Source of the DNA: an uncultured Pseudomonadales bacterium
Lineage (GTDB): Bacteria; Pseudomonadota; Gammaproteobacteria; Pseudomonadales; Cellvibrionaceae
Assembly: GCA_947487765.1 (NCBI GenBank)
Contig: CANKXO010000007.1
Span: 22,180-86,179 of the forward strand
Length of the DNA: 64,000 bases
Direction: 5' to 3'
The notes under the pieces were generated by a model. The model worked only from the letters and a program-made list of their open reading frames with translations, had not been told where the DNA came from and did no database searches. This document shows positions 24,357-40,200 of this stretch, piece by piece. Made by a program: the position numbers and the translations under genes. The first letter of the stretch is position 1. Each line of letters opens with the position of its first letter.

Positions 24357-25265
24357 ATGAAAGAAATTAATGAGAAGCGAGTCGCTTATCTTTACGAAGC
24401 CGTGACAATGGGGACTATTCGTGCCGCAGCAGATAAGCTAAATGTTGCGCCTTCAGCTGTCAGTCGTCAAATAACATTATTGGAAGAAGAGCTCGCCAGT
24501 ACCTTGATTGAGCGTCACCGTAAGGGTGTCACAGCAACGGAGGCGGGTGAAGTCATTTTACGTTTTTATCGCGAAGCACTTTCCAGCGAAGAAACCTGCA
24601 TTTCTAAACTACAAGCATTACAAGGCCTGCAAAGCGGTCACATTAAATTAGCGATAGGCGAAGGCTTTGTGGGTGATTTAATGTCGGGCCCTCTACCTGA
24701 ATTTTCTCGACGGTATCCCTCGCTAACCTTATCGATTAGTATGGCGGGATCGAATGAAGTGATCCGCAAAGTAGAAGAGGATGAAGCTCATATCGGTTTA
24801 TTGTTTCATCCTGCATCACATCCGAATATTCGTTCTCAAGTTATCAGCTCTCAACCCATTTGTGCGATTGTCTCTCCAGAGCATGTATTGGCAAATAGGG
24901 CTAGTGCAATTACATTGGAAGAGCTGCTGGAATATCCCGTTGCATTACTCGAATCTCAATATGGTGTACGGCAATTACTAGGCATGGCCGAATTTAAGGA
25001 ACGTATTCGTTTCCGACCAATAGTAACTTCAGATTCAATTGCTGTTTTAAAATTTTTTGTGCGTTCTAATATGGGATTCGCCTTTCTTCCTGAATTTGTG
25101 GTGGCAAAAGAAATTGAAGATCAACAGTTAGTTGCAATTAAAATAGATCAAGAAATATTGGCTGGTGGCGAGGCGCATATGATTACTCGTTTAGGTCGTC
25201 AGCTTTCGGAAGGGCCACATTGTTTATTAGAGCATTTGAGAGCTTGGATGAAGGCATTTAGTTGA
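24357..25265 (+). CDS. LysR-family transcriptional regulator
   Basis: N-terminal HTH LNVAPSAVSRQITLLEEEL plus LysR substrate-binding domain. Confidence 0.85.
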   Translation: MKEINEKRVAYLYEAVTMGTIRAAADKLNVAPSAVSRQITLLEEELASTLIERHRKGVTATEAGEVILRFYREALSSEETCISKLQALQGLQSGHIKLAIGEGFVGDLMSGPLPEFSRRYPSLTLSISMAGSNEVIRKVEEDEAHIGLLFHPASHPNIRSQVISSQPICAIVSPEHVLANRASAITLEELLEYPVALLESQYGVRQLLGMAEFKERIRFRPIVTSDSIAVLKFFVRSNMGFAFLPEFVVAKEIEDQQLVAIKIDQEILAGGEAHMITRLGRQLSEGPHCLLEHLRAWMKAFS

Positions 25266-25520
25266 GGCTTTCAAAAATATATCGCTATATTTTGTATAAA
25301 TAATAAAAATAAGCTTGAAATTTATCGTTACAAGCCTAGAATGCACATCAAATTAATTAATGCAGAGACTTTATCTTTGAAGCATTTACTCATATTTACA
25401 AATTACAGCATCGCTTCTGGGGCCGATAGTGCCCAAGAGATACGCTGTGCGTCAATATAACCTGTCTAAGTAAATATAGCTGGCAGGTTTAGCCTTCCAG
25501 TTTTAAAAAGTTATTAAAAA

Positions 25521-25557
25521 CCCGGAAGGCATAACTGCTTTTCGGGTTTTTTTATGC
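25521..25557. terminator. Rho-independent terminator (A-tract / stem / T-tract, bidirectional)
   Basis: aaaaa-cccggaagg-cataactg-cttttcggg-ttttttt. Confidence 0.6.
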
Positions 25558-26127
25558 CCGAGTTTTAAAAGTAAATGATGAGAGTAATTAGAACTTTGCT
25601 CTTATAAAGTTGTTGGTAGTTGCAATTTTGACAAATGCATAAAAATAGGAGAGTTATTATTGAAAGTTAATCAGAGGCTTAGATCGTTTATTTATAGATG
25701 AATAGTGTCATTCCACGAGTAGGGAAAATTTATTTTACAGATAAGTTTTCCTCGCTAAATTATTGTCGAATTTTTGTGAATATAGCCGCAATGGCATCGC
25801 TCGCCTATTGATTGCTAATACAATATAACTTATTGATATATAGATATTATTTCAAAAAATACTATGCCTTGTTTTAATTTTTATTACGGGCTATTGTTTA
25901 AAAAGATTTACGAAACAACACATCCAAGTGTTAACAAAAAAGAGATTTAACCATGAACCGATTACTCGGAATAAATAACCATCATACAGCTTCAGAGTGG
26001 CCATTAAAGAGTCAGCTGCTGCCGTTTAGTAATTGTTATCGTCAAAATCAAGGCGATATGAGTTTAGAGATGTAATTTGCACTTTCCTTACCGGAAGGCT
26101 GCAAGGCCAACCGGATACGTTTTTTTG

Positions 26128-26160
26128 AAACCCGATTGGCTTTGCTTATCGGGTTTTTTT
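26128..26160 (+). terminator. Rho-independent terminator; the module ccggaaggc...tcgggtttttttatgccc repeats the 25521 element
   Basis: cccgat-tggctttgctt-atcggg followed by a T7 tract. Confidence 0.55.
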
Positions 26161-26497
26161 ATGCCCTTCATGGATGAAGGGTACATCGAAAATGCAGGTC
26201 GGCTTTTGCTCCTGCAAAACCGACATTCACGCCATCCATGGCGCTTGAGCAATTTTTTGAGTGCCCAAAGATGGAAGATGAACCCATAACGCTCGAGAAC
26301 CTTTCGAGTATTAAAGGATTAATTTTACATGGCAGTATTTTAGGAAGTTACTCCACAAGGATGTTTTTTAATAGTGCAATGCCCACTTACACGGCATTAG
26401 TTTTTTAACAATTTGGTCGCTTTTTCCGGCATATAAGAAAGGTAAATACATTCTCGGTAATCTCGATGAGTCGTATTTTTTACTTATATGCCAAGTA

Positions 26498-26653
26498 TGC
26501 CCCTATCGTCTAGTTGGATAGGACGCTGGGTTTTCAATTCAGTAACGTCGGTTCGCCGCAAGCGGACCGGTCCAAAGTTATAAACTTTGGCCGTTCAAGA
26601 AACGCAAAGCATGCTTTGCTTAACATGTTTCTTTCACCCATCTAGGGGCACCA
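26498..26653 (+). ncRNA. Long tRNA-like RNA L1. The 5' part is a canonical tRNA-Glu(TTC) (acceptor, D-arm, anticodon arm, start of the T-arm); an approximately 95-nt hairpin-rich insert follows, then a 3' strand complementary to the acceptor 5' strand + A + CCA
   Basis: gccccta (26498-504) pairs 7/7 with taggggc (26643-649), followed by a-cca; anticodon loop ttTTCaa; the insert holds three clean hairpins (ccgc-aa-gcgg; cgg.ccaaagtt-ata-aactttgg.ccg; aagaaac...gcaaagc-at-gctttgc...gtttctt). Confidence 0.55.
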
Positions 26654-26663
26654 ATAATTTGTT

Positions 26664-26740
26664 ACGTCGATAGCTTAACTGGCAAAAGCTCTGGCCTCCA
26701 AAACCAGGCGATGTAGGTTCGAACCCTACTCGGCGTGCCA
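26664..26740 (+). tRNA. tRNA-Trp (CCA)
   Basis: acceptor acgtcga/tcggcgt (one G-U), D-stem gctt/aagc, anticodon loop ctCCAaa (stem has a C-A mismatch), T-arm gtagg-ttcgaac-cctac, discriminator G + encoded CCA. Confidence 0.75.
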
Positions 26741-26749
26741 AACATAAAT

Positions 26750-26909
26750 GCAGTGATAGCCCCAATAGATCGGCAGATTTTTGTTTCATTGAAGATCAGG
26801 AGAGTGCTGGTTCGACAGCTTTGTAGGAGCAAAAGTTGGACGCTTGTATAGGCGGTCGAGAAGCGATTATGCACAAGGATGTGTATAACAATTCCGGCTC
26901 ACTGCACCA
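26750..26909 (+). ncRNA. Long tRNA-like RNA L2. Acceptor-like 7/7 pairing + discriminator + CCA encloses about 145 nt, including a degenerate T-arm-like hairpin and an internal module paralogous to the one in L5
   Basis: gcagtga (26750-56) pairs with tcactgc (26899-905), followed by a-cca; internal gctg-gttcga-cagc; the block tttgtaggagcaaaagttggacgc...ggcggtcgagaagcgattatgcacaagga aligns with the L5 insert. Confidence 0.5.
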
Positions 26910-26916
26910 GTTTTAT

Positions 26917-26993
26917 TTCGGTGTGAAGCAGAGTGGTAATGCGCCTGACTGTTAATCAGGAGTTCGTTGGTTCGACCCTAGCCGCCGGAGCCA
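26917..26993 (+). tRNA. tRNA-Asn (GTT)-like (non-canonical D-arm)
   Basis: anticodon arm cctga-ctGTTaa-tcagg, T-arm gttgg-ttcgacc-ctagc, acceptor ttcggtg/cgccgga (G-U pairs), G + CCA. Confidence 0.55.
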
Positions 26994-27001
26994 ATTTTAT
27001 T

Positions 27002-27083
27002 GAGGGTGTTGAGCAGGTGGTGAGCTCAGCGGACTGTAAATTCGCCGGAAACTATGTAGGTTCGATTCCTTCCACCCTCACCA
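27002..27083 (+). tRNA. tRNA-Tyr (GTA)
   Basis: acceptor gagggtg/caccctc 7/7, D-stem gagc/gctc, anticodon gcgga-ctGTAaa-ttcgc, 10-nt variable region, T-loop ttcgatt, A + CCA. Confidence 0.8.
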
Positions 27084-27090
27084 AATTTCC

Positions 27091-27168
27091 GGGCCAATAG
27101 CATAATCGGTAAATGCCCCGGCCTCATAAGCCGGAGAAGGAGCGGTTCGAATCCGCCTTGGCCTACCA
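27091..27168 (+). tRNA. tRNA-Met/Ile2 (CAT)
   Basis: acceptor gggccaa/ttggcct, D gcat/atgc, anticodon ccggc-ctCATaa-gccgg, T-loop ttcgaat, A + CCA. Confidence 0.75.
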
Positions 27169-27186
27169 ATTAAATGATTAGTTAAT

Positions 27187-27261
27187 AGCGGTGTTGAGCA
27201 ATGGCTGCTTTCGGGTTTCATATGCCCGAGCTTGTTGGTTCGATTCCAACCACCGCAACCA
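27187..27261 (+). tRNA. tRNA-Met (CAT), second copy
   Basis: anticodon cgggt-ttCATat-gcccg, perfect T-arm gttgg-ttcgatt-ccaac, acceptor 6/7 (A-A at 1:72), A + CCA. Confidence 0.7.
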
Positions 27262-27265
27262 AATT

Positions 27266-27356
27266 GGAAGTGTGGCCGAGTGGTAAGGCAGCGGATTGCT
27301 AATCCGTACAGTGATAAATCGTTGCTGCATGAGTTCGAATCTCATCACTTCCTCCA
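27266..27356 (+). tRNA. tRNA-Ser (GCT), long variable arm
   Basis: ggaagtg...ggccgagtggtaaggc, anticodon gcgga-ttGCTaa-tccgt, long variable arm, T-arm atgag-ttcgaat-ctcat, acceptor 7/7, T + CCA; 91 nt. Confidence 0.9.
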
Positions 27357-27382
27357 AAATACTCCGGTGATGCAATTGGAAG

Positions 27383-27486
27383 GCAGGTTAAGGCTCCTGC
27401 AAAACCTGCATTCCCACCATCCATGGTGGTCACATAGCCCACTTAAAATCGGTTTGTTGCGAGTTCGACTCTCGCCGTCTGCATCA
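27383..27486 (+). ncRNA. Long tRNA-like RNA L4. Acceptor-like 6/7 pairing, a Cys-type T-arm (gcgag-ttcgact-ctcgc), a GCA-containing loop and a covarying internal hairpin; no encoded CCA. A degenerate paralogue lies at 26189-26310
   Basis: gcaggtt (27383-89) vs cgtctgc (27476-82); cctgcaaaacc loop; ccacc-atccat-ggtgg hairpin corresponds to acgcc-atccat-ggcg in the 26196-26251 copy (compensatory changes). Confidence 0.45.
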
Positions 27487-27574
27487 GTTTTTCGTGAGGT
27501 AATTCAATTAGCAGAATGCGATTTTCATAAAATCGGCGATAGTGGTGCAAGTCCACTCTTCACGACCGGTTAAT

Positions 27575-27648
27575 AGCAGCGTGGTGTAACGGTAACACAC
27601 CGGACTTTGACTTCGGTATTTCAGGTTCGAATCCTGGCGCTGTTGCCA
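27575..27648 (+). tRNA. tRNA-Gln (TTG)
   Basis: acceptor agcagcg/cgctgtt, D gtgt/acac, anticodon ccgga-ctTTGac-ttcgg, T-loop ttcgaat, G + CCA. Confidence 0.75.
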
Positions 27649-27688
27649 AATAGTATGTTGAGTAGGGTTCTAAAAATATTTAATTTTT

Positions 27689-27763
27689 GTGCGAGTGGCA
27701 GAATGATGATGCGCGGAACTGCAACTTCCGTTTACGCCGGTTTGATTCCGGCCTCGCACTCCA
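27689..27763 (+). tRNA. tRNA-Cys (GCA)
   Basis: acceptor gtgcgag/ctcgcac 7/7, anticodon cggaa-ctGCAac-ttccg, T-arm gccgg-tttgatt-ccggc, T + CCA; 3-bp D-stem as in E. coli tRNA-Cys. Confidence 0.8.
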
Positions 27764-27769
27764 AATTTT

Positions 27770-27914
27770 CTGGATATAGCACAGCCTAGTAGCGTGTTGG
27801 GTTTAACTAAAATACATCCAAGTATTTTGCCCTTCGGGTTCTTCGAAGTTCAAAACGTTCCAGACGTTTTGTGGAGCTCAAAGTTTGTGGGTTCAAACCC
27901 TGCTATCCAGACCA
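27770..27914 (+). ncRNA. Long tRNA-like RNA L3. Canonical acceptor (7/7), D-arm and T-arm + A + CCA, with an approximately 85-nt structured insert replacing the anticodon region
   Basis: ctggata/tatccag; D gcac/gtgt; T-arm gtggg-ttcaaac-cctgc; the insert contains a cc-ttcg-gg tetraloop hairpin and aaaacgt-tccag-acgtttt hairpin. Confidence 0.55.
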
Positions 27915-27926
27915 ATTAATTTAAAC

Positions 27927-28000
27927 GCGGTGTTGACCGAATGGTTAGGTACCTGCCTTCCAAGCAGAGGAAATGGGTTCGATTCCCATACACCGCTCCA
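27927..28000 (+). tRNA. tRNA-Gly (TCC)
   Basis: acceptor gcggtgt/acaccgc 7/7, anticodon loop ctTCCaa (4-5 bp stem), T-arm atggg-ttcgatt-cccat, T + CCA. Confidence 0.75.
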
Positions 28001-28008
28001 AAATTTAA

Positions 28009-28082
28009 TGAAGGTTGGCTTAGTGGCTGAGCACCGGACTTTTAATCCGGCTAGATGGGTTCGATCCCCATACCTTCAACCA
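28009..28082 (+). tRNA. tRNA-Lys (TTT)
   Basis: acceptor tgaaggt/accttca 7/7, D gctt/gagc, anticodon ccgga-ctTTTaa-tccgg, T-arm atggg-ttcgatc-cccat, A + CCA. Confidence 0.85.
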
Positions 28083-28116
28083 ATTACAATAAAACAACTA
28101 AAAGGAGATCGTATTA

Positions 28117-29312
28117 TGGCGATTAAAAAAGTATTGGCGCCGCATAAAGATCAGCGGTTGCCTGTAAAAATTTGGACGGATGATATTGATTACAGCACGC
28201 AGGCTCAGTTGAGTCGTGTAGCGAACTTACCATTCGTTTATAAGCATGTAGCAGCGATGCCTGATGTACATCTCGGAAAAGGCGCCACTGTTGGTTCAGT
28301 GATTGCAACCGATAAAGCTATTATCCCTGCAGCTGTGGGTGTGGATATTGGATGTGGAATGAATGCAGTGAGATTATCTATTAAAGCAAAAGATTTGCCT
28401 GATAGCCTAAAATTGATTCGAAACGGAATTGAATCAGTTGTACCTTTAGGTCCCGGAGGTCAACATCGTGACCCCAAAATTGCTGGTGGTCATGATATAT
28501 CAATGCGTCTATGTACTATTTTTGAAAAACACCCGAAGTTAAGTAAGCGCGTTAAAGTGAATGGGTTTGCGAAACAATTAGGAACGCTGGGCTCAGGAAA
28601 TCATTTCATTGAATTATGTTTAGATGAAAATGATGACGTGTGGATTATGTTGCATTCAGGGAGTCGTGGAGTTGGCAATAAAATCGGTATGTACTTTATC
28701 GAAATTGCTAAACGAGAAATGGAAAAATGGATGATTCACTTACCTGATAAAGACTTGGCTTATCTATCTGAAGGGTCAGAATATTATGATGACTATATTG
28801 AAGCAGTTTCTTGGGGGCAAGATTATGCGGCATTGAATCGCACGCATATGATGAATGCAGTAATGCTAGAACTACGTAAGTATTTACCTGCGTTTACAAT
28901 CACACAAGAGGCTATCAATTGCCACCATAATTATGTTGAAAAGGAAAATCATTACGGCAAAAACGTATGGGTAACGCGTAAAGGCGCAATCCGTGCGAGA
29001 AAGGATGATCTTGGTATTATTCCCGGGTCCATGGGTGATAAAAGTTTTATTGTTCGTGGTAAAGGTGAATCTGAATCATTTTGTTCTTGTTCCCATGGTG
29101 CGGGTCGACGATTGAGTCGTACTGCAGCTGCAAAAACTTTTTCCGTTGCTGATCTCGTATCAGCTACTGAAGGAATAGAATGTCGTAAAGACAGGGGTGT
29201 CATTGATGAAATTCCAATGGCATATAAGCCTATCGATAGCGTGATGGATAACCAAACTGATCTAGTGGATATAGTTCATACACTTCGACAAGTCGTCAAT
29301 GTAAAAGGCTAG
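28117..29312 (+). CDS. rtcB: RNA ligase RtcB (3'-phosphate/5'-OH RNA-splicing ligase family)
   Basis: AMPDVHLGKGATVGSV, GCGMN, GSGNHFIEL, HSGSRGVG, CSCSHGAGR; RBS aaggag 9 nt upstream of the ATG at 28117. The tracked ORF from 27885 is an artefactual extension across two tRNAs. Confidence 0.9.
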
Positions 29313-29358
29313 AAAGGACTTAGCCTTTTCTTTCACCTCTTTCCTCATTTTTAATTTA

Positions 29359-29432
29359 GCCCAATTGGCATAGTGGTCGTGCAGCTGCTTTGTAAGCAGC
29401 AGAGACAGGTTCAATTCCTGTATTGGGCTCCA
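29359..29432 (+). tRNA. tRNA-Thr (TGT)
   Basis: acceptor gcccaat/attgggc 7/7, D gcat/gtgc, anticodon gctgc-ttTGTaa-gcagc, T-arm acagg-ttcaatt-cctgt, T + CCA. Confidence 0.85.
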
Positions 29433-29441
29433 GTTTACATC

Positions 29442-29593
29442 GCCTGATTAGTTCAATTGGACTTAGAGCATCCGCCTACGACAATTTTGCAGGAGCAAAA
29501 ATTGGGCGTCTATAGAGGCGATCGTGAAACGATAATGTGCAGGACGCATATTACAAACGGGAAGATGCGGGTTCGAATCCTATTCAGGTGCCA
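29442..29593 (+). ncRNA. Long tRNA-like RNA L5. Acceptor 6/7 + G + CCA, canonical D-arm, T-arm-like gcggg-ttcgaat, and an approximately 95-nt insert paralogous to the L2 insert
   Basis: gcctgat vs ttcaggt; D gttc/gagc; insert aattttgc-agga-gcaaaaatt hairpin, atcgt-gaa-acgat hairpin; aligns with L2 (tttgYaggagcaaaaRttggRcg...ggcgRtcgNgaaRcgatWatg). Confidence 0.5.
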
Positions 29594-29601
29594 AATTTAT
29601 T

Positions 29602-29678
29602 ACTCTCGTAGCTTAATTGGATAGAGCGTCTGTCTTCGAAACAGAACGGTGTTGGTTTGATTCCAACCGAGAGTGCCA
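29602..29678 (+). tRNA. tRNA-Arg (TCG)
   Basis: acceptor actctcg/cgagagt 7/7, D gctt/gagc, anticodon tctgt-ctTCGaa-acaga, T-arm gttgg-tttgatt-ccaac, G + CCA. Confidence 0.85.
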
Positions 29679-29917
29679 ATAATTATTATTAATAAACCCG
29701 AGAATCTTTAGGTGTGGCCGTGGCAGATTGATAAATTTACCGGGAGTAAATTTAGACGCGGGAGAGAAGCGACGGCGCCCGTAGGGGTTGTAACATGGAT
29801 GTTACAAACCAATGTGCGCTTAACTTTGGCTTAAGTGCCCTTGGTTTTTGGAAAGGGGAGTTCAGGTCGCATCGGTCACCCCTAAAGGTTTTTACTAATA
29901 GAAAAGGAGGTCAAGCA

Positions 29918-30211
29918 ATGAGACTTGCTATAACGCGATCAGGTTTTTATAACGCTGATCTTTATTGCGCTGATACTCGTACAGCTAAAAGAGTGTTGCG
30001 TGAAAAAAATATTTCCATATTGGCTATCGACTATTATCTAGTTGGCCAGGGAAATGGTTGCGATATTATTGATTGGGCTAAAAGAAATGCAGTTTTGCCT
30101 AATTTTATCGTTGTTATTGAACGTAATCGCAACAAACGAGCCTTATTATCGAATACATTACGAAATATAGGTTATCGCTCTGGTGATGATACTACCTTTA
30201 TAAGGCATTAA
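29918..30211 (+). CDS. Hypothetical small protein (97 aa), alternating beta/alpha pattern (receiver/Rossmann-like?)
   Basis: RBS aaaggagg 7 nt before ATG 29918; MRLAITRSGFYNADLY...ISILAIDYYL...NFIVVIERN; the longer tracked ORF from 29795 lacks an RBS. Confidence 0.5.
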   Translation: MRLAITRSGFYNADLYCADTRTAKRVLREKNISILAIDYYLVGQGNGCDIIDWAKRNAVLPNFIVVIERNRNKRALLSNTLRNIGYRSGDDTTFIRH

Positions 30212-30250
30212 ATTTAGTTAAAGCGACCACTATGATTAATTGAGAATAGG

Positions 30251-30814
30251 ATGATGAATATTCAAATTTTGCAGCTATCGAAGTCAGGTCACCCAATGTC
30301 TTGGGTGAACCGTGAAGAAGCCGCAACACTGTATGCAAAAAATAGGGTGTTATGGGAGCTGGGTGACGAAGTTATTCCAATTGTCGGCGGTATTAATCGC
30401 TTGGGCATTCAAAGTCGCTTCGATATGGCACCAATTATTGCTTGTGATGGTGATGTGAAACAACCTCGTTTACGACCATCGTTAAGTAATCGTATGCTGT
30501 TTCGCCGAGACGATTACCGATGCTTGTATTGTGGTGTTCAGTTTAATCACGACGGATTAACGCGGGACCATATTGTGCCGCGTATTCAAGGTGGTTTAGA
30601 TCGTTGGGAAAATGTGGTTGCTGCTTGTAAACGCTGTAATCACAGTAAGGGTGGTCGAACGCCAGAGCAGGCAGGGATCAAGCTATTGGCCATTCCATTT
30701 GTGCCGAATCCGTTTGAGTTTCTGTTTTTGGCAAATCGACATATTCTGGCTGACCAGATGGATTATCTTGCGACAAGCTTTTCGTCAAAGCGAGACTGGA
30801 AAAAAGTGGCTTAA
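30251..30814 (+). CDS. HNH endonuclease-domain protein
   Basis: CLYCG...DHIVPRIQGG...WENVVAACKRCNHSKGG (HNH with zinc-ribbon cysteines). Confidence 0.8.
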   Translation: MMNIQILQLSKSGHPMSWVNREEAATLYAKNRVLWELGDEVIPIVGGINRLGIQSRFDMAPIIACDGDVKQPRLRPSLSNRMLFRRDDYRCLYCGVQFNHDGLTRDHIVPRIQGGLDRWENVVAACKRCNHSKGGRTPEQAGIKLLAIPFVPNPFEFLFLANRHILADQMDYLATSFSSKRDWKKVA

Positions 30815-30834
30815 CTATTAAGCCACCCACATAT

Positions 30835-30862
30835 TTGGAATACAGGTATTAACCTGTATTCC
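30835..30862 (+). terminator. Strong hairpin after the HNH gene (11-bp stem, weak U-tract)
   Basis: ggaatacaggt-atta-acctgtattcc. Confidence 0.5.
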
Positions 30863-30991
30863 ATACCGATGTTTATACGTATGTTGGCGAAACAGCGGCT
30901 CTGGTTCTGAATGCCAGGCTGGCACAGTCATGTTTTATGTCCTGTGTACCGATTCACTAACACGTTAAACAGTATGCTCTGAAAAAGCATA

Positions 30992-31064
30992 GTTTTTGTA
31001 GCTCATAGGGTAGAGCAATCGACTCATAATCGATGGGTAGCAGGTTCGATTCCTGCCTCAAACA
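30992..31064 (+). tRNA. Degenerate tRNA-Met (CAT)-like gene (weak acceptor 5/7, no CCA)
   Basis: D gctc/gagc, anticodon atcga-ctCATaa-tcgat, perfect T-arm gcagg-ttcgatt-cctgc. Confidence 0.4.
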
Positions 31065-31084
31065 CAGTCAGTTTTAATAAACTG

Positions 31085-31127
31085 AAGGAAAAGCCGAGAG
31101 GCTGAGGTTCGAATCCTCATTTGGTCT
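31085..31127 (+). other. Isolated tRNA 3'-half fragment (variable arm + T-arm + 3' acceptor strand)
   Basis: gccgagaggc...tgagg-ttcgaat-cctca-tttggtc with no upstream 5' partner. Confidence 0.45.
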
Positions 31128-31424
31128 ACTAAACCAAATATAAAACAAGAGGCTCATAGCAACGTAATGCTGTTATAGATTATGTTGCGTTGACATTAAT
31201 ACCGTTAATGATGGGTTAAGGTATTGCGTAGTAAATAATAAGTTTACCTCACTATCAACAGCTAAGGATGGTGTCCTAGGGATGGGGATAATCAAGAGTG
31301 ATTAGGTTAGTGTGGAGCAACCGCTGTATTTGTCTACCCATTACATTTAAGTTATTTACCGTACTCATGGCAAATGGGCCTCGCCATTATAGTCATTGGA
31401 AGAAATAAATAAGGGAGAATAATA

Positions 31425-32576
31425 ATGATTCTTTGGAAAACAATCGATATTGCGGAACATGAACGTGTATTACTTTATGTCCGTGATCAATTTAAACAAG
31501 TGCTAGGCCCAGGTCGGCATCGTGTCTCGACCTTGAAGGGAAAAGTTCGCCAGGAAACCTATGATATTACCGAAGTAGTATTCAGGCATCCTAAAGAAAA
31601 ATTTTTGCTGTCACACTACCCAGAAAAACTGGCAATGCACCTTGAGCAGTTTGACTTAAAAGATACTGAAGTGGGCTTGTTATATCGAAATGGCCATTTA
31701 ATGAATGTGTTGGCACCTGGTAGTTTATTTACAGTTTGGAAAGGTGTTGAGGATATTCGTGTTGACGTTATCGATATTAATAACCACTATCAGATAGAAG
31801 AGTCTTTAATTGGCTTATTGGGGCGAGGCATTAAAATTGGTCAAAGCCGAGAAGTCGTTAATGCGATTGCTTATGCAGAGGTAGTTGATGAGCATGTAGG
31901 TTTATTGCTGGTTAACGGTAAGCTAGAAAAGATCTTGCAACCGGGTAGTTACGGCTTCTGGAAATATAACCGTTCAATTGCGGTTAAAATGCTTGATCTT
32001 CGTTTACAAGCAATGGAGGTTAGTGGCCAAGAGATTCTGACCAAAGATCGCGTGAGTTTGCGTATTAACTTAACTGGTAGTTATAAAATTAAAGATCCTC
32101 AAATTGTTGCCTCTAAGGTGAATGATTACGCAGGTTTTATCTATCGTGAGTTGCAATTAAGTTTGCGAGAAATTGTAGGCACACAATCATTAGATGGATT
32201 GTTAGAAGATAAAGATGCTTTAAATTCTGTAATTACTCAGAGTACACGAGAAAAATTAGCGGAATACGGTATTCAGTTAATGAGTGTCGGGGTTAAAGAT
32301 ATTATTTTACCTGGTGAAATGAAGCAGATTCTGAATCGAGTAGTAGAGGCGCAAAAAGAGGCTGAAGCTAATTTGATTAAGCGTCGTGAGGAAACTCAGG
32401 CAATGCGTTCATTACATAATGCTGCCAAGATGATGGAAAACAACCCTGTGTTGTTACGTTTAAAGGAATTAGAAGCATTAGAAAGAGTGACTGGGAAAAT
32501 CGATAAGATTTCTGTCTATGGTGGCCTTGATAGTGTTCTTAATGACTTGGTAAAACTGGCGCCGGTCAAAACCTAA
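31425..32576 (+). CDS. SPFH/band-7 domain protein (cytoplasmic, duplicated N-terminal beta-domain)
   Basis: SPFH core TKDRVSLRINLTGSYKIKDPQIVASKV...QLMSVGVKDIILPGEMKQILNRVVEAQKEAEANLIKRREETQAM; no N-terminal TM. Confidence 0.7.
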   Translation: MILWKTIDIAEHERVLLYVRDQFKQVLGPGRHRVSTLKGKVRQETYDITEVVFRHPKEKFLLSHYPEKLAMHLEQFDLKDTEVGLLYRNGHLMNVLAPGSLFTVWKGVEDIRVDVIDINNHYQIEESLIGLLGRGIKIGQSREVVNAIAYAEVVDEHVGLLLVNGKLEKILQPGSYGFWKYNRSIAVKMLDLRLQAMEVSGQEILTKDRVSLRINLTGSYKIKDPQIVASKVNDYAGFIYRELQLSLREIVGTQSLDGLLEDKDALNSVITQSTREKLAEYGIQLMSVGVKDIILPGEMKQILNRVVEAQKEAEANLIKRREETQAMRSLHNAAKMMENNPVLLRLKELEALERVTGKIDKISVYGGLDSVLNDLVKLAPVKT

Positions 32577-32580
32577 AGAA

Positions 32581-32611
32581 AGCTGCTAGGTTATTTAGCA
32601 GCTTTCTTTGA
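32581..32611. terminator. Bidirectional terminator hairpin between the convergent SPFH and RT genes
   Basis: aaagctgcta-ggttatt-tagcagcttt (10-bp perfect stem). Confidence 0.6.
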
Positions 32612-32749
32612 TGAGAAGTTTACCTTTTAAATGACTGTTTCATGCAATGATGAAACAATAGCAATATCGAACATCATTTGTTATTAATGAGTTAATTTTT
32701 TTATAATTGAATGCTAGGGTTGAAGTTCATAAGATGTTTTTATTGAGCG

Positions 32750-34531
32750 CTAGCGAAAAGATACAATCAAAAATATAAGTACAGCAATTGCCGCAAAAAT
32801 CATTACGCGAGCGAAGGGTTGCATAGAATCTGTATTAGATGCATCCGATAGCCATGGTGATTGAGATTCTTTCTGTTGTTGTGACTTAGTTTCTTCCTTT
32901 TTTGTTTGTTTTTTTGCGGTCGCTATTTGTTTAAGCTCTTCTGTAGTATTCTCTTTAACAGGTGGTGCTGGTGGCTCAGCTTGCCACCAGTTTTCGCGTG
33001 GTGCTTCACCGGCAGCGGCCTTTAAGCGTAAAAGTTTATTATTTAATTTGCCAATGCGACTTGGATTAACTTGATAACTGTATTTTTGTTTTAGTTGTAC
33101 TATTTGCTTTTGTAAAGGAATGCCCTTGCTAGGGTTAACCATTGCGACAAAGTTGGCGTAACCTTCTATGGAGCACAATAAATTGCTACTGCTATTGTGA
33201 GAACGATGAGCCCAGTGCTTACCCTCTAGCCCGCTTTTGTCAATTTGATGTAGTAAGGCTCTGAAGCGCTTTAAGGTCTTGCGATCAACGCTAAGGTTAT
33301 TATTCACTACCACGCCGGTCACTTCTTGTTTTTTATGCTTGCGCATAATGCGTGTTTTTTCGGGGTGAACAATAAAACCTTCATCCTTAATAATACTATG
33401 ACAACGCCACAATAGTTTTTTTACAATGCTGTCGTCAATATTCTGTGGATTAATATCATCGCCCTTGTTGGAGCTTGCCGAAAAAGTAACATCGTCAGCA
33501 TATCGCGTATAAGTAAAGCCTAATTTTTTAGCCATCCCTTGTAAGCGAGCATCCAATTTTCTACAGATGATATTGCTAATATTAGGGCTAGTTGGCGCTC
33601 CTTGCGGTAAAAAGCGCTCTCCGTTACTAACAAACCAAGACTGACTATCTAGTTCAACCTCCTGTGTATTCGCTTCGGTGCAAAGTAAGGCTAGTACTGT
33701 TGCAATGTGTTCACTGTAACCTAGAGCTTTAAACATCCCCTTAACTCTTGGATAGCTAATTGTTGGAAAGAAGTTTTTAAGGTCGAGGTTAATAACAATA
33801 TCTTTGCCTACATGAGGCGCAGCATTGGTTACGATAGAGCGCGTGCGTACAAAGCCATGAGCGGCATCATGTAATGCCAGCGGCTCTAAAATATTGGATA
33901 AAACCCAATACTGGGCAAGTTTCAACCGTGGCATAGGGGCAGATATTAGGCGAGTTCCACCGGTTTTCTTGGTCATTTGGAAGCGTTGATAATGACTAAT
34001 CGTGCAGACATCTTTTTGGTAGACTAAAAAACGTAGCTCATTAACGGTAATGCCCATGGCTCTGGCCAACATTTGGCTGTCGTGCAGTAGTGGTAACTGT
34101 TGGGCTTGGAGTTTGTCTTCATCGCTGTTAACTTTTGATAGCCCTATCGATAAACCTTCCCCTACGAAGGTAATAAATTTCTTTTGGATGTCGTACCAAT
34201 TCTTTGCTCGTTGGTATCGTGTTTCATTGCGTTCTTTACGCTTTTCTTCTCTACGAATAAGTGCTTCTTTTTTACGCTGTTTGTGTAACTCCTTTAGTGC
34301 TTGCTCTGGGTCTTGATACAATTGCTGTTGCTTTCCTAATTCACGCAGTTGCTTTTGTAACTGCCCGCGCTTTTCAATAAAGGTTTCTGTTAGTGTTGGC
34401 TGTTCACTATTTTTTGGCCAAAACCCAAGACGTTTCATCTCTGCTAAAATATAAACTTCTTTACCACCTGTTTCGCGTACGCGCTGGTAGAGTTCTTGGC
34501 GGCTTAATTTTTTAGTGCTTTCGTCAGACAT
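32750..34531 (-). CDS. Retron-type reverse transcriptase with a long N-terminal extension and a C-terminal transmembrane anchor
   Basis: RLISAPMPRLKLAQYWVL, NAAPH (NAxxH), NLDLKNFFPTI, QGAPTSP, YADD, VTGVVV (VTG); collinear with Ec86 RT; C-terminus MIFAAIAVLIFLIVSF is hydrophobic after a Lys/Gln-rich low-complexity linker. Confidence 0.85.
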   Translation of the reverse strand: MSDESTKKLSRQELYQRVRETGGKEVYILAEMKRLGFWPKNSEQPTLTETFIEKRGQLQKQLRELGKQQQLYQDPEQALKELHKQRKKEALIRREEKRKERNETRYQRAKNWYDIQKKFITFVGEGLSIGLSKVNSDEDKLQAQQLPLLHDSQMLARAMGITVNELRFLVYQKDVCTISHYQRFQMTKKTGGTRLISAPMPRLKLAQYWVLSNILEPLALHDAAHGFVRTRSIVTNAAPHVGKDIVINLDLKNFFPTISYPRVKGMFKALGYSEHIATVLALLCTEANTQEVELDSQSWFVSNGERFLPQGAPTSPNISNIICRKLDARLQGMAKKLGFTYTRYADDVTFSASSNKGDDINPQNIDDSIVKKLLWRCHSIIKDEGFIVHPEKTRIMRKHKKQEVTGVVVNNNLSVDRKTLKRFRALLHQIDKSGLEGKHWAHRSHNSSSNLLCSIEGYANFVAMVNPSKGIPLQKQIVQLKQKYSYQVNPSRIGKLNNKLLRLKAAAGEAPRENWWQAEPPAPPVKENTTEELKQIATAKKQTKKEETKSQQQKESQSPWLSDASNTDSMQPFARVMIFAAIAVLIFLIVSFR

Positions 34532-34638
34532 CTGCCTGTCTCCCTAATATAAATAAGGATAAATGTTGAGTGTTAAAAAAATGGATAATGATAGTTGTTA
34601 CAAGAACAAATAAAGAAGAGAAGTGCGCAAGATAAAAG

Positions 34639-34868
34639 GGTGCCAGCGTGCTCAATGTTTCCTTCGTAGAGCTCTTAGTACTGGATTGATCAACTCGACG
34701 CGGCACGCCCCTACTATCGCTCATTGACTTCATGGAAGTCATACCGCAATAGCGATAGTAGGGGCTGTGCCGCCCTATGAAGATCAGGCCAGTGACGCGT
34801 GTGTAGTCTATAAACCAGAACGGCGATGCACCGCTCAAATTGCAAGGTAGATAAGTCACGCTGACACC
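34639..34868 (-). ncRNA. Retron msr-msd non-coding RNA (a1/a2 inverted repeats flanking a long msd hairpin)
   Basis: a1 ggtgtcagcgtg (minus strand, plus coords 34857-34868) pairs with a2 cacgctggcacc (34639-34650) over 12-14 bp; about 72-nt near-perfect palindrome at 34701-34772 (cggcacgcccctactatcgct...agcgatagtaggggctgtgccg with inner gacttc-atg-gaagtc). Confidence 0.7.
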
Positions 34869-34931
34869 TGTGCTAGTATAGCAGTGTTGTTAGGTTTTAA
34901 AAGAGCGCTATTAAAATTCTTCATGATCTCT

Positions 34932-36572
34932 TTAACCGTTTGCTAAGGAATATTGTTTTCTGATCGCTAATATATGTTCGCATGGCCCCATGCGCAGTAA
35001 ATTCGTTCGATAAAAATAACAGTCGCAGCTAGCCTCTTTTAAACGTTGATCGCCGTCAATTTTAATCTCAGTGTTCAAATGGTGTCCGTCATCAATGACT
35101 GTTCCTTGAATTTGAGCACCTCTTTCATTTTCTAGCTTATGATGAATTGTCACCAAGTTGGCGGCCACAAATCGAGCAGACTTTTCATCGCGCTCATTAG
35201 CAAAACGCAATGAGTCCATCGGTAAAGGTTGTTGGCTAAGTTCACGGATACGATAAACACTTCCGGCTAAATCATAAAGCACTTGCCCCTGTTGGCTATA
35301 GGCAGCCAATGCAGATTTCACTACTGACTCATCTAAATGCAGTCGTCGTGCCAGTGAGTCACTGGATTCTTGCCATGTCTCTGATAGTGCTTGGTAAACA
35401 CGTTTAAGTGTTACTTCGTCAACATCACCTCTAGGCGCTAATAGATCAAAGTTACCCATTCGTGACCAATCATTTGCTGACCAGCCCGACAAACCTAAGG
35501 TAAATGTCATATCGCCTAAATCGGCAACGTAAAAACTAGGTAAGCCATTACCTAATAGATGTACCGTAAATTTTTTGGCGATAGGGATTAAACGCTCCAA
35601 TATATGCAGGCGACGGCGCCCCCATATACGAATTGATCTAGCGTCATTTCCTGTATAAATGCTTCTGGCTAATATTAATTCTGTGCCCCATGGCTCTAAG
35701 ATAATTTTAATAGGCTCATCTGATGCCAGTTCAAATCGTATTGCCCGAGGGCCTACGCGCTCTCTTTTACGCCGCAACATATAACAAATATTGTGAATAT
35801 CCATTGGGTGCAATGTTAATGTGGTCATGGGTAAGGTCATAGCTGAGCTTACCTGTAAAAAACCACGCACCCAGCTTTCAGGAAGATCAATTTTCTTTTC
35901 GTCAAATTGTTCCTCATGGCTGGTTTGCATACTGAAACCATCGGGGTCAATTGCCAATGCTGTTTGGCGATACTCTCTTATTTTTTGAAATTCGTTGTAT
36001 AAACCTTCCGAGTAATCAATATTTGTGGTGCCGTAAGAAGTATCGGTTATATTATCAAATACGTCATAGCTACAGCTAAGTTTTCCGTAACTTGATTCAT
36101 CTTCAGAAAAACATTCAAAAAAAACTTCGTCGGGATGGACGGTAATTACTGGGTCAAGTACATACCAAGCATCCATATCGGTTTTATAAAGATGTTTGAA
36201 ATATTTGTTCTGAGCTGTATAAAAAGGCCCCATTAATGCTTGGCTTTGCTTGCTAAGTTCAGATAGTTCTTTGCGCACAAGCTCAATTTCGCCTTCCACC
36301 TGTGACTTGCGACCAATAAATTCTGCCAATAGCCGCTCTTCTTCTTCAGCTAGCCAGCGCTCGTATTCGCTGCGATCTTTTGGCTGAAAGCGCATATCAG
36401 AAATCACAACATTGTGTAGTGCCGATATCGCCTCACGAAAAGCTATTTTCTGCTTAAGCTGTCCTACAAAATAAGTAGGTAGGCGCAAACTGTCAGGCAC
36501 AAAAGATACATCTGTACTCGCTGCATTGCTCGCAACATGGCTCTGCCCATGATATCGATAACGAAATTCCAT
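34932..36572 (-). CDS. SWIM zinc-finger protein (retron accessory / putative effector)
   Basis: C-terminal CxCx(n)CxH: EASCDCYFYRTNLLRMGPCEHILAI; 546 aa. Confidence 0.7.
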   Translation of the reverse strand: MEFRYRYHGQSHVASNAASTDVSFVPDSLRLPTYFVGQLKQKIAFREAISALHNVVISDMRFQPKDRSEYERWLAEEEERLLAEFIGRKSQVEGEIELVRKELSELSKQSQALMGPFYTAQNKYFKHLYKTDMDAWYVLDPVITVHPDEVFFECFSEDESSYGKLSCSYDVFDNITDTSYGTTNIDYSEGLYNEFQKIREYRQTALAIDPDGFSMQTSHEEQFDEKKIDLPESWVRGFLQVSSAMTLPMTTLTLHPMDIHNICYMLRRKRERVGPRAIRFELASDEPIKIILEPWGTELILARSIYTGNDARSIRIWGRRRLHILERLIPIAKKFTVHLLGNGLPSFYVADLGDMTFTLGLSGWSANDWSRMGNFDLLAPRGDVDEVTLKRVYQALSETWQESSDSLARRLHLDESVVKSALAAYSQQGQVLYDLAGSVYRIRELSQQPLPMDSLRFANERDEKSARFVAANLVTIHHKLENERGAQIQGTVIDDGHHLNTEIKIDGDQRLKEASCDCYFYRTNLLRMGPCEHILAIRKQYSLANG

Positions 36573-36643
36573 ATTTTTGCCTGAGAAATTTTTCTGAAAA
36601 TTATGAATCTAATGCGTTTTTGTATAATTTTTATATAGCGTTT

Positions 36644-39600
36644 TTAAACACCCAGCGATGCAGGTTGTTTAATGGGTACCTTTTTGGCTGTTAAGGGTGA
36701 TGCTATATCTGGATACAATGATTGTAATTTAAGCATAGCTTTTATCAAAGCGGCTTTATCTTTATGTACCATAGTTAACGAAATTCGTTCCAATAAAGGC
36801 ATTACCATAGTGGCAACACTTATATCTTTTTCTGCTTCTCTTAATAAAAACAGTAGAATCCTATCTTTACAAACGCGACCCTTATTAATTTGTGATAACG
36901 CTGTTGTAAAATAAGCTTGTAATGAAAGTATATGGCTAGGAATACCCGCCGCGTATTCTTCTAAAAAACTGCTGACAAAAAGCTGTACATTATTTGACGG
37001 ATGCTGGCTTAACTTAAGCAAGTATTCTGGGCCATACTCAGCTTTAAAAAAAGATTGTAGTATTTCGCGTCCAAAGCTTTGTACGTCATCTCTGATGCTG
37101 TCGCAAATAAAAATAACAATTTCAGGGCTCCAATCTTCTTGGCTGTATTGTTGTCGAAAAAAATCAAAGCCAAAGGTTCTTGCATCGTCCCAGTTGCTAT
37201 TTAGAATTCGAAGAGCATCACGACTGTATTGTTTAATTTCATCTACATTTTTCTCGTAAGCCTGAAATGCAAACTGCCTGACAGATACATCGCTATGCTG
37301 GCCTAATATTGCCCATTGTTTGACTGAAAATATATCTGCATTACGTTCAGTTAAGGTTATGGCGCCCACTCGTTGAGCACAGATAGATTGTGCCTGTAAT
37401 AAGCGCCATAGCATATCATTGTCTAGTTTCGTTAAATGTGATTGTGCCAATGAAGTAAAAAAGGCAATTAATTCTTCATGTTGCCCAGGCTGCTCTTCAG
37501 ACTTAAATGTCAGCGCTAATAATGTATTTTCAATCTGCTCGGATCCCTGTTGAGAGTTGGTCATTAGGCGGGAAAAAATAGAAAGTAGGGAGGCGCGCTC
37601 TTGAGTATCGCCCTTGCAATACAAGCCGACTAATAAGTCTAATTGTTTGATTAAGTCTTTATCGGCTTGTTTGCCTAGTAATGCAGCACCTATCCCTCTA
37701 ACTTCGGCTGAGGATGAATCATGAATTGCCTGTAATAAGCTGTCGGGAATATCTCCATAAGATATTTTGTGTCCAAGCAATAATTTTGCACCTAATATTT
37801 TTCTGGGTACTTTCTCGTCATGAATTAAACGTTGCAAACTAGTAAGAGGGAAGTGTTTAATTGCATCATTTAGGTTCTCAAGTGCAAAATCGGCCAAATA
37901 CTCTGCATGCTTTTCGCTTAAGTTGCTGTTCTCTAAAAAGATAGAATCAACTATAGCTTGCAATAGTTTCTCAGCATTTCTACCAGAAATCTTTTGCTGG
38001 CAAACAGCCGTTTTAATGTCACTTTGTACATCACTATGAAGAATCAATAGTAGTGATGTTAATAGTGAAATATCATCATTAATTTTGAACCTTAGTAAAG
38101 ATTGCTTACCTAATACTCTAGCCTCAGTCAGCGAGCTACTTAGTAGAGCGATTAATAATTCACTACTTAAATCGTCTTGTTTAATGCGTTCGCGAACAAT
38201 TGCTAGTGCAAATTCACAAGTACTCGCATAGTTGCTGTTCAGTAAAAGAGCTAAATCTACAGGGCTGATTTTCTGGCAAAAACTCGGTTGATTTTCTAAT
38301 ATCCGACGAGCGAAAGGATGAACCAGCTCGCATCGACTTGTTTTTAATAAGCGTAGTGCATGGCTAGGCTTTTGATCCCAAAGTTCAGCAAAGCATTCGG
38401 TACGAGATCCATTTATCAAGGAAGTACCGTCGGTATTCGACTCATCACTTTTTATCCAGACGCGGCCACTAGGTGCAAGTTGATACCCTGGATGATGTTC
38501 GAAGAGGATATGATTTAAGCTTAAGAAGCTGGCAAAAGGGCCATATTCATTGCTGGATATCAACTGGCGTTGCCAATTGTCGCCACTATTATCCCAGCGA
38601 TAAACCTCTGATGTTCGAGGCTTGCTACCATGCTCATCATTAATCGCAAGCAATGATTCTGTTGCCATATCAACATAACGGAGATCACCGGCCTGTCCTA
38701 TACGCCTGAGTACTCGCCAGCTACGACGGCGAAAGTAATCTCGTGTACGATGCGAGAAGGTCAATTTTGCATTGGCCTTTTTCAGTTCTTTAGATGGTTT
38801 AATACTGCCTTCACCGGGAAGCCATGCCCAATCCCAATCATTACGAAAAAATGCGGGTGCTGTTTCTATACGCTGCGCTAATAAGCCAAATACAGACCCG
38901 TCAAGACGTAGCTCGGATGCTTTATAAATTGATCTAATGCCCCGAAAATATCCTGGGGTTAGGGGAATAATAGCCAGTTGACTTAATAATGCTTGATGCA
39001 ATATGGGGTAAGCTAGCGATAGCTGATAACAAAGTACCAATAGCTGATTAGTATTGTTAACGTTGTCACTAGCCCCATGACTGAGCAACGCGCCAAGTTG
39101 CTGATGAGCAGTGCTACTATTTCCTTCCATAACAGCAGATTTAAACTGTGCAGGAAAGTGCTGCCAATGGCTGCCTAACAAGGCTTTGCGCGATGTTTGG
39201 TCGCTGATTAATAGTTGCGATTCAAAGGCTATATGACAAACTTGTGCTTGTTTGTGTTGCCTCAAGGTTTCTAAAACCGCCTTGTGTTGCGTGGCAACCA
39301 TCCGCCCCAAGGCCCAAGCAATAGAGTAATCCTCTAACCAATGGCCTTTCTTAATATAGGGCACAATTGCATTGGCAATAGGTTCACAATCTCGGTGCCC
39401 TAATTCCCCGAGTCGCCATATCATGCGGCTGCGAGATTTAGTCTCTTTTTCATTGGGTAAATGATTGAGTATCTGTTCAATTAGTTTAAAAGGAAAGTCA
39501 TCGGAGGCAAGATTGCTAGAAGGGACGCCTGCAAGTGTAGGCGAGGTAGTAGTAGGGGACTGTTTTGCTTGTTCTCTATCCCAATAGCCTTTATTGACTT

Positions 39601-39820: not shown

Positions 39821-40200
39821 AGCTTCCTTAAACTCTTTTATTTTTTGATAAACTTATTTTTTTGAGTATAGCATTATCCTAATAATGGACAAGACTACAT
39901 GGCTATATTATATCTAGAGTTTACACTCGCTCTATCGTAAAGACTATGCTTCTATATACTTCATTCACGTTTTATTAGATAGCAATTATAACCTTTACCC
40001 CTTTCCCTGACGTGATTGTAAAGTGTTAATTTCATATTTGGGTTTACGGCGGTGCTATAATTTTGGTTGCTGTGTCAGGAAGTGTCGCGTTATTTTCAAT
40101 TCTAAAGGTTATCTTGATGAATGTGTTACCTAGCCCGATGACAAATATGTAATTACTATATTTTAAACAATTTTTAAATGCTTAACTGGTAGTAAAGTAT

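Follow-up and report, generated by a model that had tools for sequence, protein, structure and literature searches.

An RtcB ligase gene inside a long tRNA array of a Cellvibrionaceae bacterium and its putative place in an attenuator-controlled RNA-repair operon

We analysed a stretch of 64,000 nucleotides (hereafter the window) from an uncultured Pseudomonadales bacterium of the Cellvibrionaceae (assembly GCA_947487765.1, contig CANKXO010000007.1, positions 22,180 to 86,179), in which a gene for the RNA ligase RtcB, a gene for a 97-amino-acid (97-aa) cRec-like protein and a gene for an HNH endonuclease are all embedded in a run of tRNA genes on the plus strand. The tRNA genes were called with ARAGORN and Rfam, protein domains with Pfam and NCBIfam, and defence models with PADLOC. 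Loci that carry homologues of the window genes were compared for gene context and are given L numbers; L222, from a close relative with a 4.38-Mb genome, was the main reference for intact versus interrupted tRNA genes. ARAGORN and Rfam placed 14 tRNA genes on the plus strand between 26664 and 31065. The array itself comprises 14 canonical tRNAs and six tRNA-derived genes (20 genes, elements A to F being the derived ones), all on one strand from 26499 to 29880, and so has the form of an L-type array, that is, a long single-strand cluster, much larger than accretive arrays, with roughly one gene per amino acid; related arrays hold 8-27 genes. A previous sequence-only reading of this locus had described an RtcB, a small protein and an HNH nuclease inside a tRNA array, and this arrangement was confirmed, with each of the start coordinates it gave one base off. 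Four genes separate rtcB from the 97-aa gene, namely tRNA-Thr, element E, tRNA-Arg(UCG) and element F. The three tRNA or tRNA-like genes announced after rtcB were found as Thr, E and Arg(UCG), while the fourth, a broken tRNA-His (F), had been overlooked.

The product of rtcB (RtcB1) matched PF01139 over profile positions 1-426 with 427.8 bits (cut-off 27), and in an alignment with the RtcB of P. horikoshii the metal-binding and His-GMP motifs MPDVH, GVDIGCGM, GSGNHF, HSGSRG, HHN and SHGAGR were all kept; the aligned residues presumably have the roles known from published structures. The gene starts 33 nt past the end of tRNA-Lys(UUU), with a GGAG Shine-Dalgarno sequence in between; the sequence-only reading had given 35 nt. 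RtcB1 falls outside the E. coli equivalog (172 bits against a cut-off of 407) and outside the PrfH-linked equivalog, and its best relative, at 80% identity, comes from a Cellvibrionaceae metagenome-assembled genome. An exact-sequence look-up returned no record of the window RtcB or of protein P0001. Upstream of RtcB relatives, tRNAs were present in about 10 of 80 loci, and many others have a Band-7 gene with a tRNA-like RNA at that place. The suggested link between RtcB and tRNAs is reasonable and has precedent. It recurs in these loci and has been published for long tRNA arrays, whose association with HNH and rtcB and whose induction under translational stress have been described (PMC8421152).

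The 97-aa protein has a receiver (CheY-like) fold with conserved acidic residues (aspartates) and no histidine kinase partner, as its earlier description as receiver-like had foreseen. Its direct match to PF20274 (cREC_REC) is sub-threshold (20.6 bits against a gathering cut-off of 27, E = 7e-4). Close homologues were sought in 5.8 billion proteins, and profile searches were run against the representative clusters of 1.84 billion proteins. The first search returned 12 close homologues, none with a name, and a profile built from these 12 retrieved just 51 representative clusters. When 50 of the clusters were scanned, 39 matched cREC_REC at E <= 0.01 (best 1.3e-26), and the homologue P0158 carries a precomputed PF20274 match. 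Because these intermediates match cREC_REC, we filed the 97-aa protein as a divergent member of the cRec domain and hence as a predicted esterase of 2',3'-cyclic phosphates. For the cRec family, which is experimentally uncharacterised, the predicted activity is the opening of such cyclic phosphates on RNA or on molecules of the cyclic ADP-ribose (cADPr) type, and its members are found in operons with RNA ligases (PMC7824862, PMC9503650). Among the viral contigs searched, no relatives of the 97-aa protein were found.

The HNH ORF of 187 amino acids starts at 30251, with 30254 as an alternative start. Its nature as an HNH endonuclease was borne out by a match to HNH_5 and by an intact motif with the catalytic His and Asn and the CxxC...CxxC zinc site. 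More than 5,300 proteins of ~185 aa make up its family; they share ~60% identity across gammaproteobacteria and have an intact CxxC...DH...N...CxxC-N. In profile and fold searches the catalytic domain was nearest to the HNH of Cas9 and IscB, to McrA and to a Geobacter nicking HNH (Gme nickase), and all of its structural neighbours are DNA nucleases; the same kinds of search gave no clear match for the N-terminal beta-rich domain. With PADLOC, the window RtcB, cRec and Band-7 proteins fitted no defence model, and HNH gave only generic matches to domains of the PtuB/Cas9 type. Homologues of the HNH protein frequently lack an RtcB neighbour (L092, L093 and a Methylibium megaplasmid), and L081 has rtcB and the 97-aa gene without an HNH gene. 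The HNH protein most likely acts on DNA, where it would serve array maintenance or mobility or would act against invading DNA.

The three protein genes recur together in other genomes. The 97-aa gene stands beside rtcB in L081, L089, L091 and L222 and near Macro/RtcR/RtcB in L090, which gives it an RNA-repair context; it stands beside the HNH gene in L089, L090, L094, L097, L222 and the distant L223; and it lies within tRNA arrays, or ends them together with HNH, in L094, L097, L098 and L099. The complete rtcB-cRec-HNH trio was found in L089 and L222. Gene order is leader, rtcB, cRec in L081; rtcB, cRec, HNH in L089; Macro...leader, cRec, HNH with adjoining RtcR/RtcB in L090; tRNA-Gln, rtcB, cRec in L091; and RtcR/RtcB/RtcA, leader, seven tRNAs, cRec, HNH, tRNA-like RNA, Band-7, Cca, RlaP, RtcB2, PrfH in L094. 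L097 to L099 carry cRec within arrays of 10-16 genes (the 2-kb fragment L099 has three tRNAs), followed in L097 by an HNH-sized open reading frame (ORF) of 186 aa, and in L223 a cRec ~33% identical to that of the window is followed by HNH. A full-length HNH homologue also terminates a 27-tRNA array on megaplasmid RPME01 of Methylibium petroleiphilum PM1 (L220, 243300-248700). This array has embedded HD-domain and AlkB genes, with a NADAR gene nearby. The HNH matches on plasmids of Nostoc and Acaryochloris were weak (33-45% identity, partial coverage), and no tRNAs were found at the HNH locus of Acaryochloris pREB6. Judged from these gene neighbourhoods, the arrangement of rtcB, 97-aa gene, HNH and tRNAs is not due to chance, and cRec with HNH makes up a compact cassette of two genes that recurs near RtcB or in tRNA arrays.

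A block of ~900 nt upstream of the array is kept in front of homologous operons regardless of their content, and the same leader before the operon, whatever its genes, argues for a single regulated unit. The promoter candidate in this block is the best promoter-like site in 25200-32700, and the block is conserved upstream in L081, L090 and L094. The length of leader ORF 1 is 33 codons in L094 and 27 codons in the other three loci (the window, L081 and L090), with the same frame in L081 and L090. In all four loci its stop codon abuts segment 1 (AACCUGUC), which can pair with segment 2, and segment 3 has as alternative partners segment 2 or the 5' half of the terminator. When the RNA was folded without the 3' half of the terminator, pairings 1:2 and 3:4 formed in all four loci, and the full-length RNA gave 2:3 and the terminator. 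L081 and L094 retain the block of putative attenuator 2, in which the alternative pairings follow the same scheme. The leader peptides vary in sequence, and their length and stop position are kept in L081, L090 and L094. On the simplest reading, a model built on four or five sequences, the two putative attenuators would let the operon sense translation capacity. Between them, at ~25885-25905, lies the motif TATTGTTTAAAAAGAT, which hardly varies among the window, L081, L089, L091 and L094 and may represent a second promoter or a site for a regulator.

Six gaps in the array fold into multi-branched RNAs closed by an acceptor stem, and comparison with L222 identified three of the six (Glu, Leu and His) as ordinary tRNA genes with insertions. 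Element A was called tRNA-Glu by ARAGORN only once 26556-26634 had been deleted, and it has further changes in T-stem and T-loop. In element C, when set against the intact tRNA-Leu(UAA) of L222 and L097, a 49-nt module occupies the D-arm, and the 3' acceptor strand and CCA have been replaced. Element F, just 5' of the cRec gene, has an 80-nt insert in the D-loop and a disrupted T-arm. Element B has a non-standard anticodon arm and is conserved in L222, and element D is partly 100% identical in L222; no amino-acid identity could be assigned to either. Element E combines a structured insert of 74-81 nt with an intact acceptor stem and CCA, and has orthologues in L222, L097 and L099. ARAGORN in intron mode recovered element E alone, with an odd parse. 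A scan for an acceptor stem followed by CCA gives ~30 chance matches per strand per 64 kb and hence is not diagnostic.

Several of these inserts belong to two RNA modules, for which models R1 (module a) and R2 (module b) were used. Module a, which B carries in its T-loop and E on the 3' side of its anticodon, consists of four hairpins, two of them with AGGA loops; it has 25 pairs, in which 98% of cells keep the pairing, and eight pairs have changed on both sides. It has seven G.U cells and zero A.C cells, which points to strand-specific selection on the transcribed RNA. Element F gave a weak R1 match (25 bits), with an equivalent match upstream of the cRec gene of L090. Module b consists of two hairpins with UCCU and UCCA loops, has nine pairs with compensatory change, and occurs after attenuator 2, in C, and also in L090, L097 and L099. 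L222 has a complementary (GGA-type) version at the position after attenuator 2, and the cores of the two modules are exact reverse complements of each other, that of module a being TTTGCAGGAGCAAA. The modules also stand outside tRNAs, in L090 within the 5' leaders of cRec and of rtcR as well as after attenuator 2, and which of them are present differs between the window and L222. Upstream of rtcR in L090 (6189-6357, minus strand) the matches are weak (module b 26.5 bits, module a 19 bits) and hint that the modules may also act at repair operons under sigma-54/RtcR control. Neither module was found in ~1 Mb of other RtcB loci, and they are therefore not generic repeats of the repetitive extragenic palindrome (REP) type. 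At E <= 10, Rfam found nothing beyond tRNA in the inserts and no known ribozyme; a YrlA-like match was weak (24 bits against a cut-off of 69) and was ignored. The 14-mer TTTGCAGGAGCAAA had at least 120 matches in viral contigs, none of them module-like by hidden Markov model, and these were put down to chance.

The array is followed on the same strand by a tRNA-like RNA without CCA and a Band-7 gene. The tRNA-like RNA has been named b7a-tRNA, a name credited to Burroughs & Aravind 2016 (cited in 10.1101/312249). A T-arm-like hairpin (TGAGGTTCGAATCCTCA) lies ~40 nt 3' of it and is also present in L094, L093, L046, L065 and L045, and the pair of tRNA-like RNA and Band-7 stands upstream of rtcB in L010, L023, L046 and L065, among others. 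Beyond Band-7, a complete type XIII retron precedes the genes for Cca, RlaP, RtcB2 and PrfH. L222 has the same gene order with Band-7 59 nt from cca, and L094 likewise has no retron, its Band-7 abutting cca; absent from L222, the retron is therefore a later insertion (~32600-40200) and lies outside the repair system. The cluster spans ~13 kb, or ~20 kb with the retron insertion. RtcR and RtcA, both present in L090 and L094, are missing from the window. After PrfH, a 318-aa ORF (44918-45874) without a Pfam or NCBIfam match has a same-sized counterpart after PrfH in L094, and may belong to the RtcB2-PrfH module.

Table 1. Positions of the genes, RNA elements and putative control signals of the locus in the window.
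Feature	Position	Strand	Basis or remark
Candidate sigma-70-type promoter of the whole operon (TTGAAA-16-TAGAAT)	25315-25342	+	10/12 positions
Leader ORF 1 (27 codons, 25377-25460) and putative attenuator 1	25377-25553	+	inferred from sequence
Attenuator 1, segments 1, 2, 3, 4	25459-25466, 25482-25489, 25492-25498, 25524-25530		
Attenuator 1, terminator hairpin followed by U-run	25516-25551	+	
Leader ORF 2 (40 codons, 25953-26075) and putative attenuator 2 (terminator ~26128-26160)	25953-26160	+	
GGA-loop hairpin (26163-26197), then module b (26190-26252)	26163-26252	+	R2 74 bits, E = 1e-15
Element A: tRNA-Glu(UUC), ~80-nt T-loop insert (26556-26637)	26499-26653	+	L222 copy uninterrupted
tRNA-Trp(CCA)	26664-26740	+	ARAGORN, Rfam
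Element B: tRNA-like (acceptor stem + ACCA), module a (26812-26893) in T-loop	26750-26909	+	R1 89.6 bits
tRNA-Asn, Tyr, Met(CAU), Met(CAU), Ser(GCU)	26917-27356	+	ARAGORN, Rfam
Element C: tRNA-Leu(UAA)-derived, module b (27375-27437) in D-arm	27361-27487	+	R2 70 bits
tRNA-Met(CAU), Gln(UUG), Cys(GCA)	27493-27763	+	ARAGORN, Rfam
Element D: tRNA-like (acceptor CTGGATA/TATCCAG + ACCA, T-arm), ~55-65 extra nt	27770-27914	+	
tRNA-Gly(UCC), tRNA-Lys(UUU)	27927-28082	+	ARAGORN, Rfam; tRNA-Lys(UUU) at 28009-28082
rtcB (RtcB1), 3'-phosphate/5'-OH RNA ligase, active-site motifs intact	28116-29312	+	Pfam 7.5e-128; ATG at 28116, stop ends at 29312, 398 aa
tRNA-Thr(UGU)	29359-29432	+	ARAGORN, Rfam
Element E: Arg(ACG)-like tRNA, module a (29478-29558) 3' of anticodon	29442-29593	+	R1 100.5 bits
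tRNA-Arg(UCG)	29602-29678	+	ARAGORN, Rfam
Element F: tRNA-His(GUG)-derived, a-like module in D-loop (29728-29813)	~29714-29880	+	L222 alignment; L222 copy intact
97-aa cRec-like protein (receiver fold; predicted 2',3'-cyclic-phosphate / cADPr phosphoesterase)	29918-30211	+	
HNH endonuclease: N-terminal beta-rich domain, CxxC...DH...N...CxxC-N HNH/Zn domain, C-terminal helices	30251-30814	+	HNH_5 6e-15 (Pfam)
b7a-tRNA (30992-31065; no CCA, mismatched acceptor stem) and extra T-arm-like hairpin (31103-31119)	30992-31119	+	
SPFH/Band-7 protein	31425-32576	+	Pfam Band_7 9e-31; same place in L093, L094, L222
Type XIII retron (reverse transcriptase, small ORF, SWIM, WGR/HEAT)	32750-39820	-	PADLOC RT_XIII 9e-188, SWIM_XIII, WGR_XIII
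Multifunctional CCA addition/repair enzyme (Cca)	40201-41460	+	syntenic in L094, L222
RlaP nucleotidyltransferase	41465-42367	+	syntenic in L094, L222
RtcB2, PrfH-linked type	42865-44091	+	syntenic in L094, L222
PrfH	44094-44789	+	syntenic in L094, L222

We propose that the locus is probably the 5' arm of a chromosomal RNA-repair cluster, built as a single attenuator-controlled tRNA-array and repair operon whose function we infer from its gene content. One plus-strand transcription unit would run from the promoter at ~25315 through the two attenuators and the L-type array with rtcB, cRec and HNH, and the Band-7 gene with its tRNA-like RNA, Cca, RlaP and RtcB2-PrfH would follow downstream of the array. 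During healthy translation, a ribosome at the leader stop would cover segment 1, the 2:3 pairing and the terminator would form, and the operon would be off. Damage to tRNAs or ribosomes, such as anticodon nucleases and other metal-independent ribotoxins may cause, would make the ribosome lag, whereupon 1:2 and 3:4 would pair and transcription would read through. The induced operon would then supply spare or decoy tRNAs, RtcB would reseal breaks with 2',3'-cyclic-phosphate and 5'-OH ends in tRNA, and cRec would process cyclic-phosphate ends or by-products. HNH, which consistently accompanies cRec and long tRNA arrays, would act on DNA and generate no substrates for RtcB. An attenuator that senses translation capacity would fit the stress induction reported for the Anabaena array.

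Several points weigh against this proposal. The 97-aa protein of the window itself scores below the cREC_REC cut-off and owes its membership to intermediate sequences, and the role given to HNH is conjecture, reached by elimination. The full-length leader RNA folds as the terminator form with or without segment 1 masked; the terminator form is thus thermodynamically favoured, and antitermination would therefore need kinetic control. Furthermore, a generic terminator scan listed neither of the two leader terminators, and L089 and L091 have no attenuator 1. Finally, three array tRNAs are disrupted relative to L222, which means that some of the array may be in decay and no longer functional.

The whole array might be horizontally acquired and decaying, with the protein genes as hitch-hikers or mobility genes and the inserts as selfish mini-elements without an RNA function. 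Close relatives do differ from the window in array content, several array tRNAs score only 41-49 bits in Rfam, the cores of modules a and b are reverse complements at the DNA level, and L-arrays are known to spread horizontally and to hold pseudogenes. However, the cRec-HNH pair is kept down to ~33% identity and the leader block is conserved, element E is kept in distant loci with its acceptor stem and CCA, the G.U cells of module a without A.C speak for selection at the RNA level, and the absence of the modules from other RtcB loci sets them apart from REP-like repeats; we therefore regard general decay as unlikely. Beyond a spare set of tRNAs, the array may also offer a display platform for undescribed structured RNA modules, which together with the attenuators would form an RNA-based sensing or regulatory layer for the repair operon. 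Modules a and b, with their complementary loops, would then have been grafted into the D-, anticodon- and T-loops of tRNAs and into 5' leaders, and would travel with cRec-HNH. We hold this view only tentatively. Possible roles of the modules include CsrA-type or Shine-Dalgarno/anti-Shine-Dalgarno mimics, or decoys for tRNA-targeting nucleases; the GGA hairpins presumably resemble CsrA-type sites or Shine-Dalgarno mimics. At the extreme, the modules could be mobile introns spliced by RtcB and spread by the HNH nuclease.

In that last case, the inserts would be introns removed in a protein-dependent manner to leave cyclic-phosphate and 5'-OH ends, RtcB would join the exons and HNH would be a homing endonuclease that spreads the introns. 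This idea is attractive in that the inserts occupy T-loops, D-loops and position 37/38 in recognisable tRNA genes, positions that archaeal introns use too, and come and go between the window and L222 as mobile introns would; in addition, RtcB is the archaeal and metazoan splicing ligase, and a free-standing HNH gene in tRNA clusters recalls the homing endonucleases of phages. The case for it is nevertheless weak. The exons are damaged, C lacking the 3' acceptor strand and CCA, F the T-arm, and A having an altered T-stem and T-loop; no bulge-helix-bulge motif was seen on reading the insert junctions, and at Rfam E <= 10 neither a splicing endonuclease nor a known ribozyme came up. Moreover, the same modules occur in 5' leaders, and L081 combines rtcB and cRec without tRNAs. 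We therefore give splicing very little credence. Hardly better placed is the toxin and antidote, or processing pair, that the sequence-only reading had suggested, in which HNH would cut tRNAs or tRNA-like RNAs and RtcB would reseal them. The two genes lie close together in one operon, and the rtcB-cRec-HNH trio does recur in L089 and L222. However, RtcB requires a 3'-phosphate or 2',3'-cyclic phosphate together with a 5'-OH, whereas nucleases of the beta-beta-alpha-Me (HNH) type leave 3'-OH and 5'-phosphate ends; by textbook enzymology such products are no RtcB substrates, and HNH is thus a poor candidate for the source of the damage that RtcB repairs. Its domain is of the DNA-cutting type, its relatives often have no RtcB neighbour, and the gene set of L081 would be odd, as an antidote missing its toxin. 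The size of the HNH family at its level of identity is likewise housekeeping-like rather than toxin-like. The idea of HNH as the matching nuclease of RtcB accordingly finds no support, and we consider such a pair highly improbable.

Parts of the proposed repair operon resemble systems already described. The trn operon of Anabaena PCC 7120 (Santamaria-Gomez et al. 2021, PMC8421152) likewise extends far along a single strand and holds pseudogenes besides roughly one tRNA for each amino acid, and Anabaena-type L-arrays share with the window a conserved adjoining HNH gene, an rtcB in the neighbourhood and, presumably, a link to translational stress (PMC8421152). In contrast to the Anabaena array, however, rtcB and cRec lie inside the array of the window, several of its tRNAs bear structured inserts, its control apparently relies on leader-peptide attenuators and not on repeats bound by a TrcR-type repressor, and it is fused to the Band-7/Cca/RlaP/RtcB2-PrfH cluster. 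The neighbourhoods of Burroughs & Aravind 2016, as far as they are relayed in 10.1101/312249, share with the window a Band-7 gene after a CCA-less tRNA-like RNA, RlaP and RtcB-PrfH, whereas RtcB1 of the window is split from Band-7 by cRec and HNH and lies among bona fide tRNAs. With the rtcBA-RtcR system of E. coli and Salmonella (and rsr-yrlA) the window has in common tRNA-like non-coding RNA companions and an RtcB repair ligase, in the window putatively, induced when the translation apparatus is damaged, but its rtcB is without sigma-54/RtcR control, and the proposed sensor is a translated leader rather than a CARF domain. The known cRec proteins of PF20274 (Iyer et al. 2021, 2022) are stand-alone receiver folds with aspartates, no kinase and a link to RNA-ligase operons, as in the window; unlike them, the subfamily of the window is very small and divergent, is found on chromosomes instead of in phages, and is paired with an HNH nuclease, which PMC7824862 and PMC9503650 do not mention as a partner. 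L-type arrays, RtcB/Band-7 neighbourhoods and cRec are thus known already, mostly from computational prediction, while the cRec-HNH pairing, the two leader-peptide attenuators and the covarying GGA- and UCC-loop modules in tRNA loops appear to be new.

To our knowledge, no clear physiological substrate of bacterial RtcB has yet emerged in most species. L-arrays, cRec, Band-7 with b7a-tRNA and the large HNH family had been known only through genome comparisons or through one study of a cyanobacterium, and the present locus unites them in one compact, apparently co-regulated unit. It raises the questions of whether a translation failure sensed by the leader leads to the replacement and repair of tRNAs, whether cRec prepares or clears cyclic-phosphate ends for RtcB, what the array-associated HNH targets, and what the RNA modules embedded in tRNAs do. 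Natural variants with and without tRNAs, HNH, RtcB and inserts make these functional questions directly testable.

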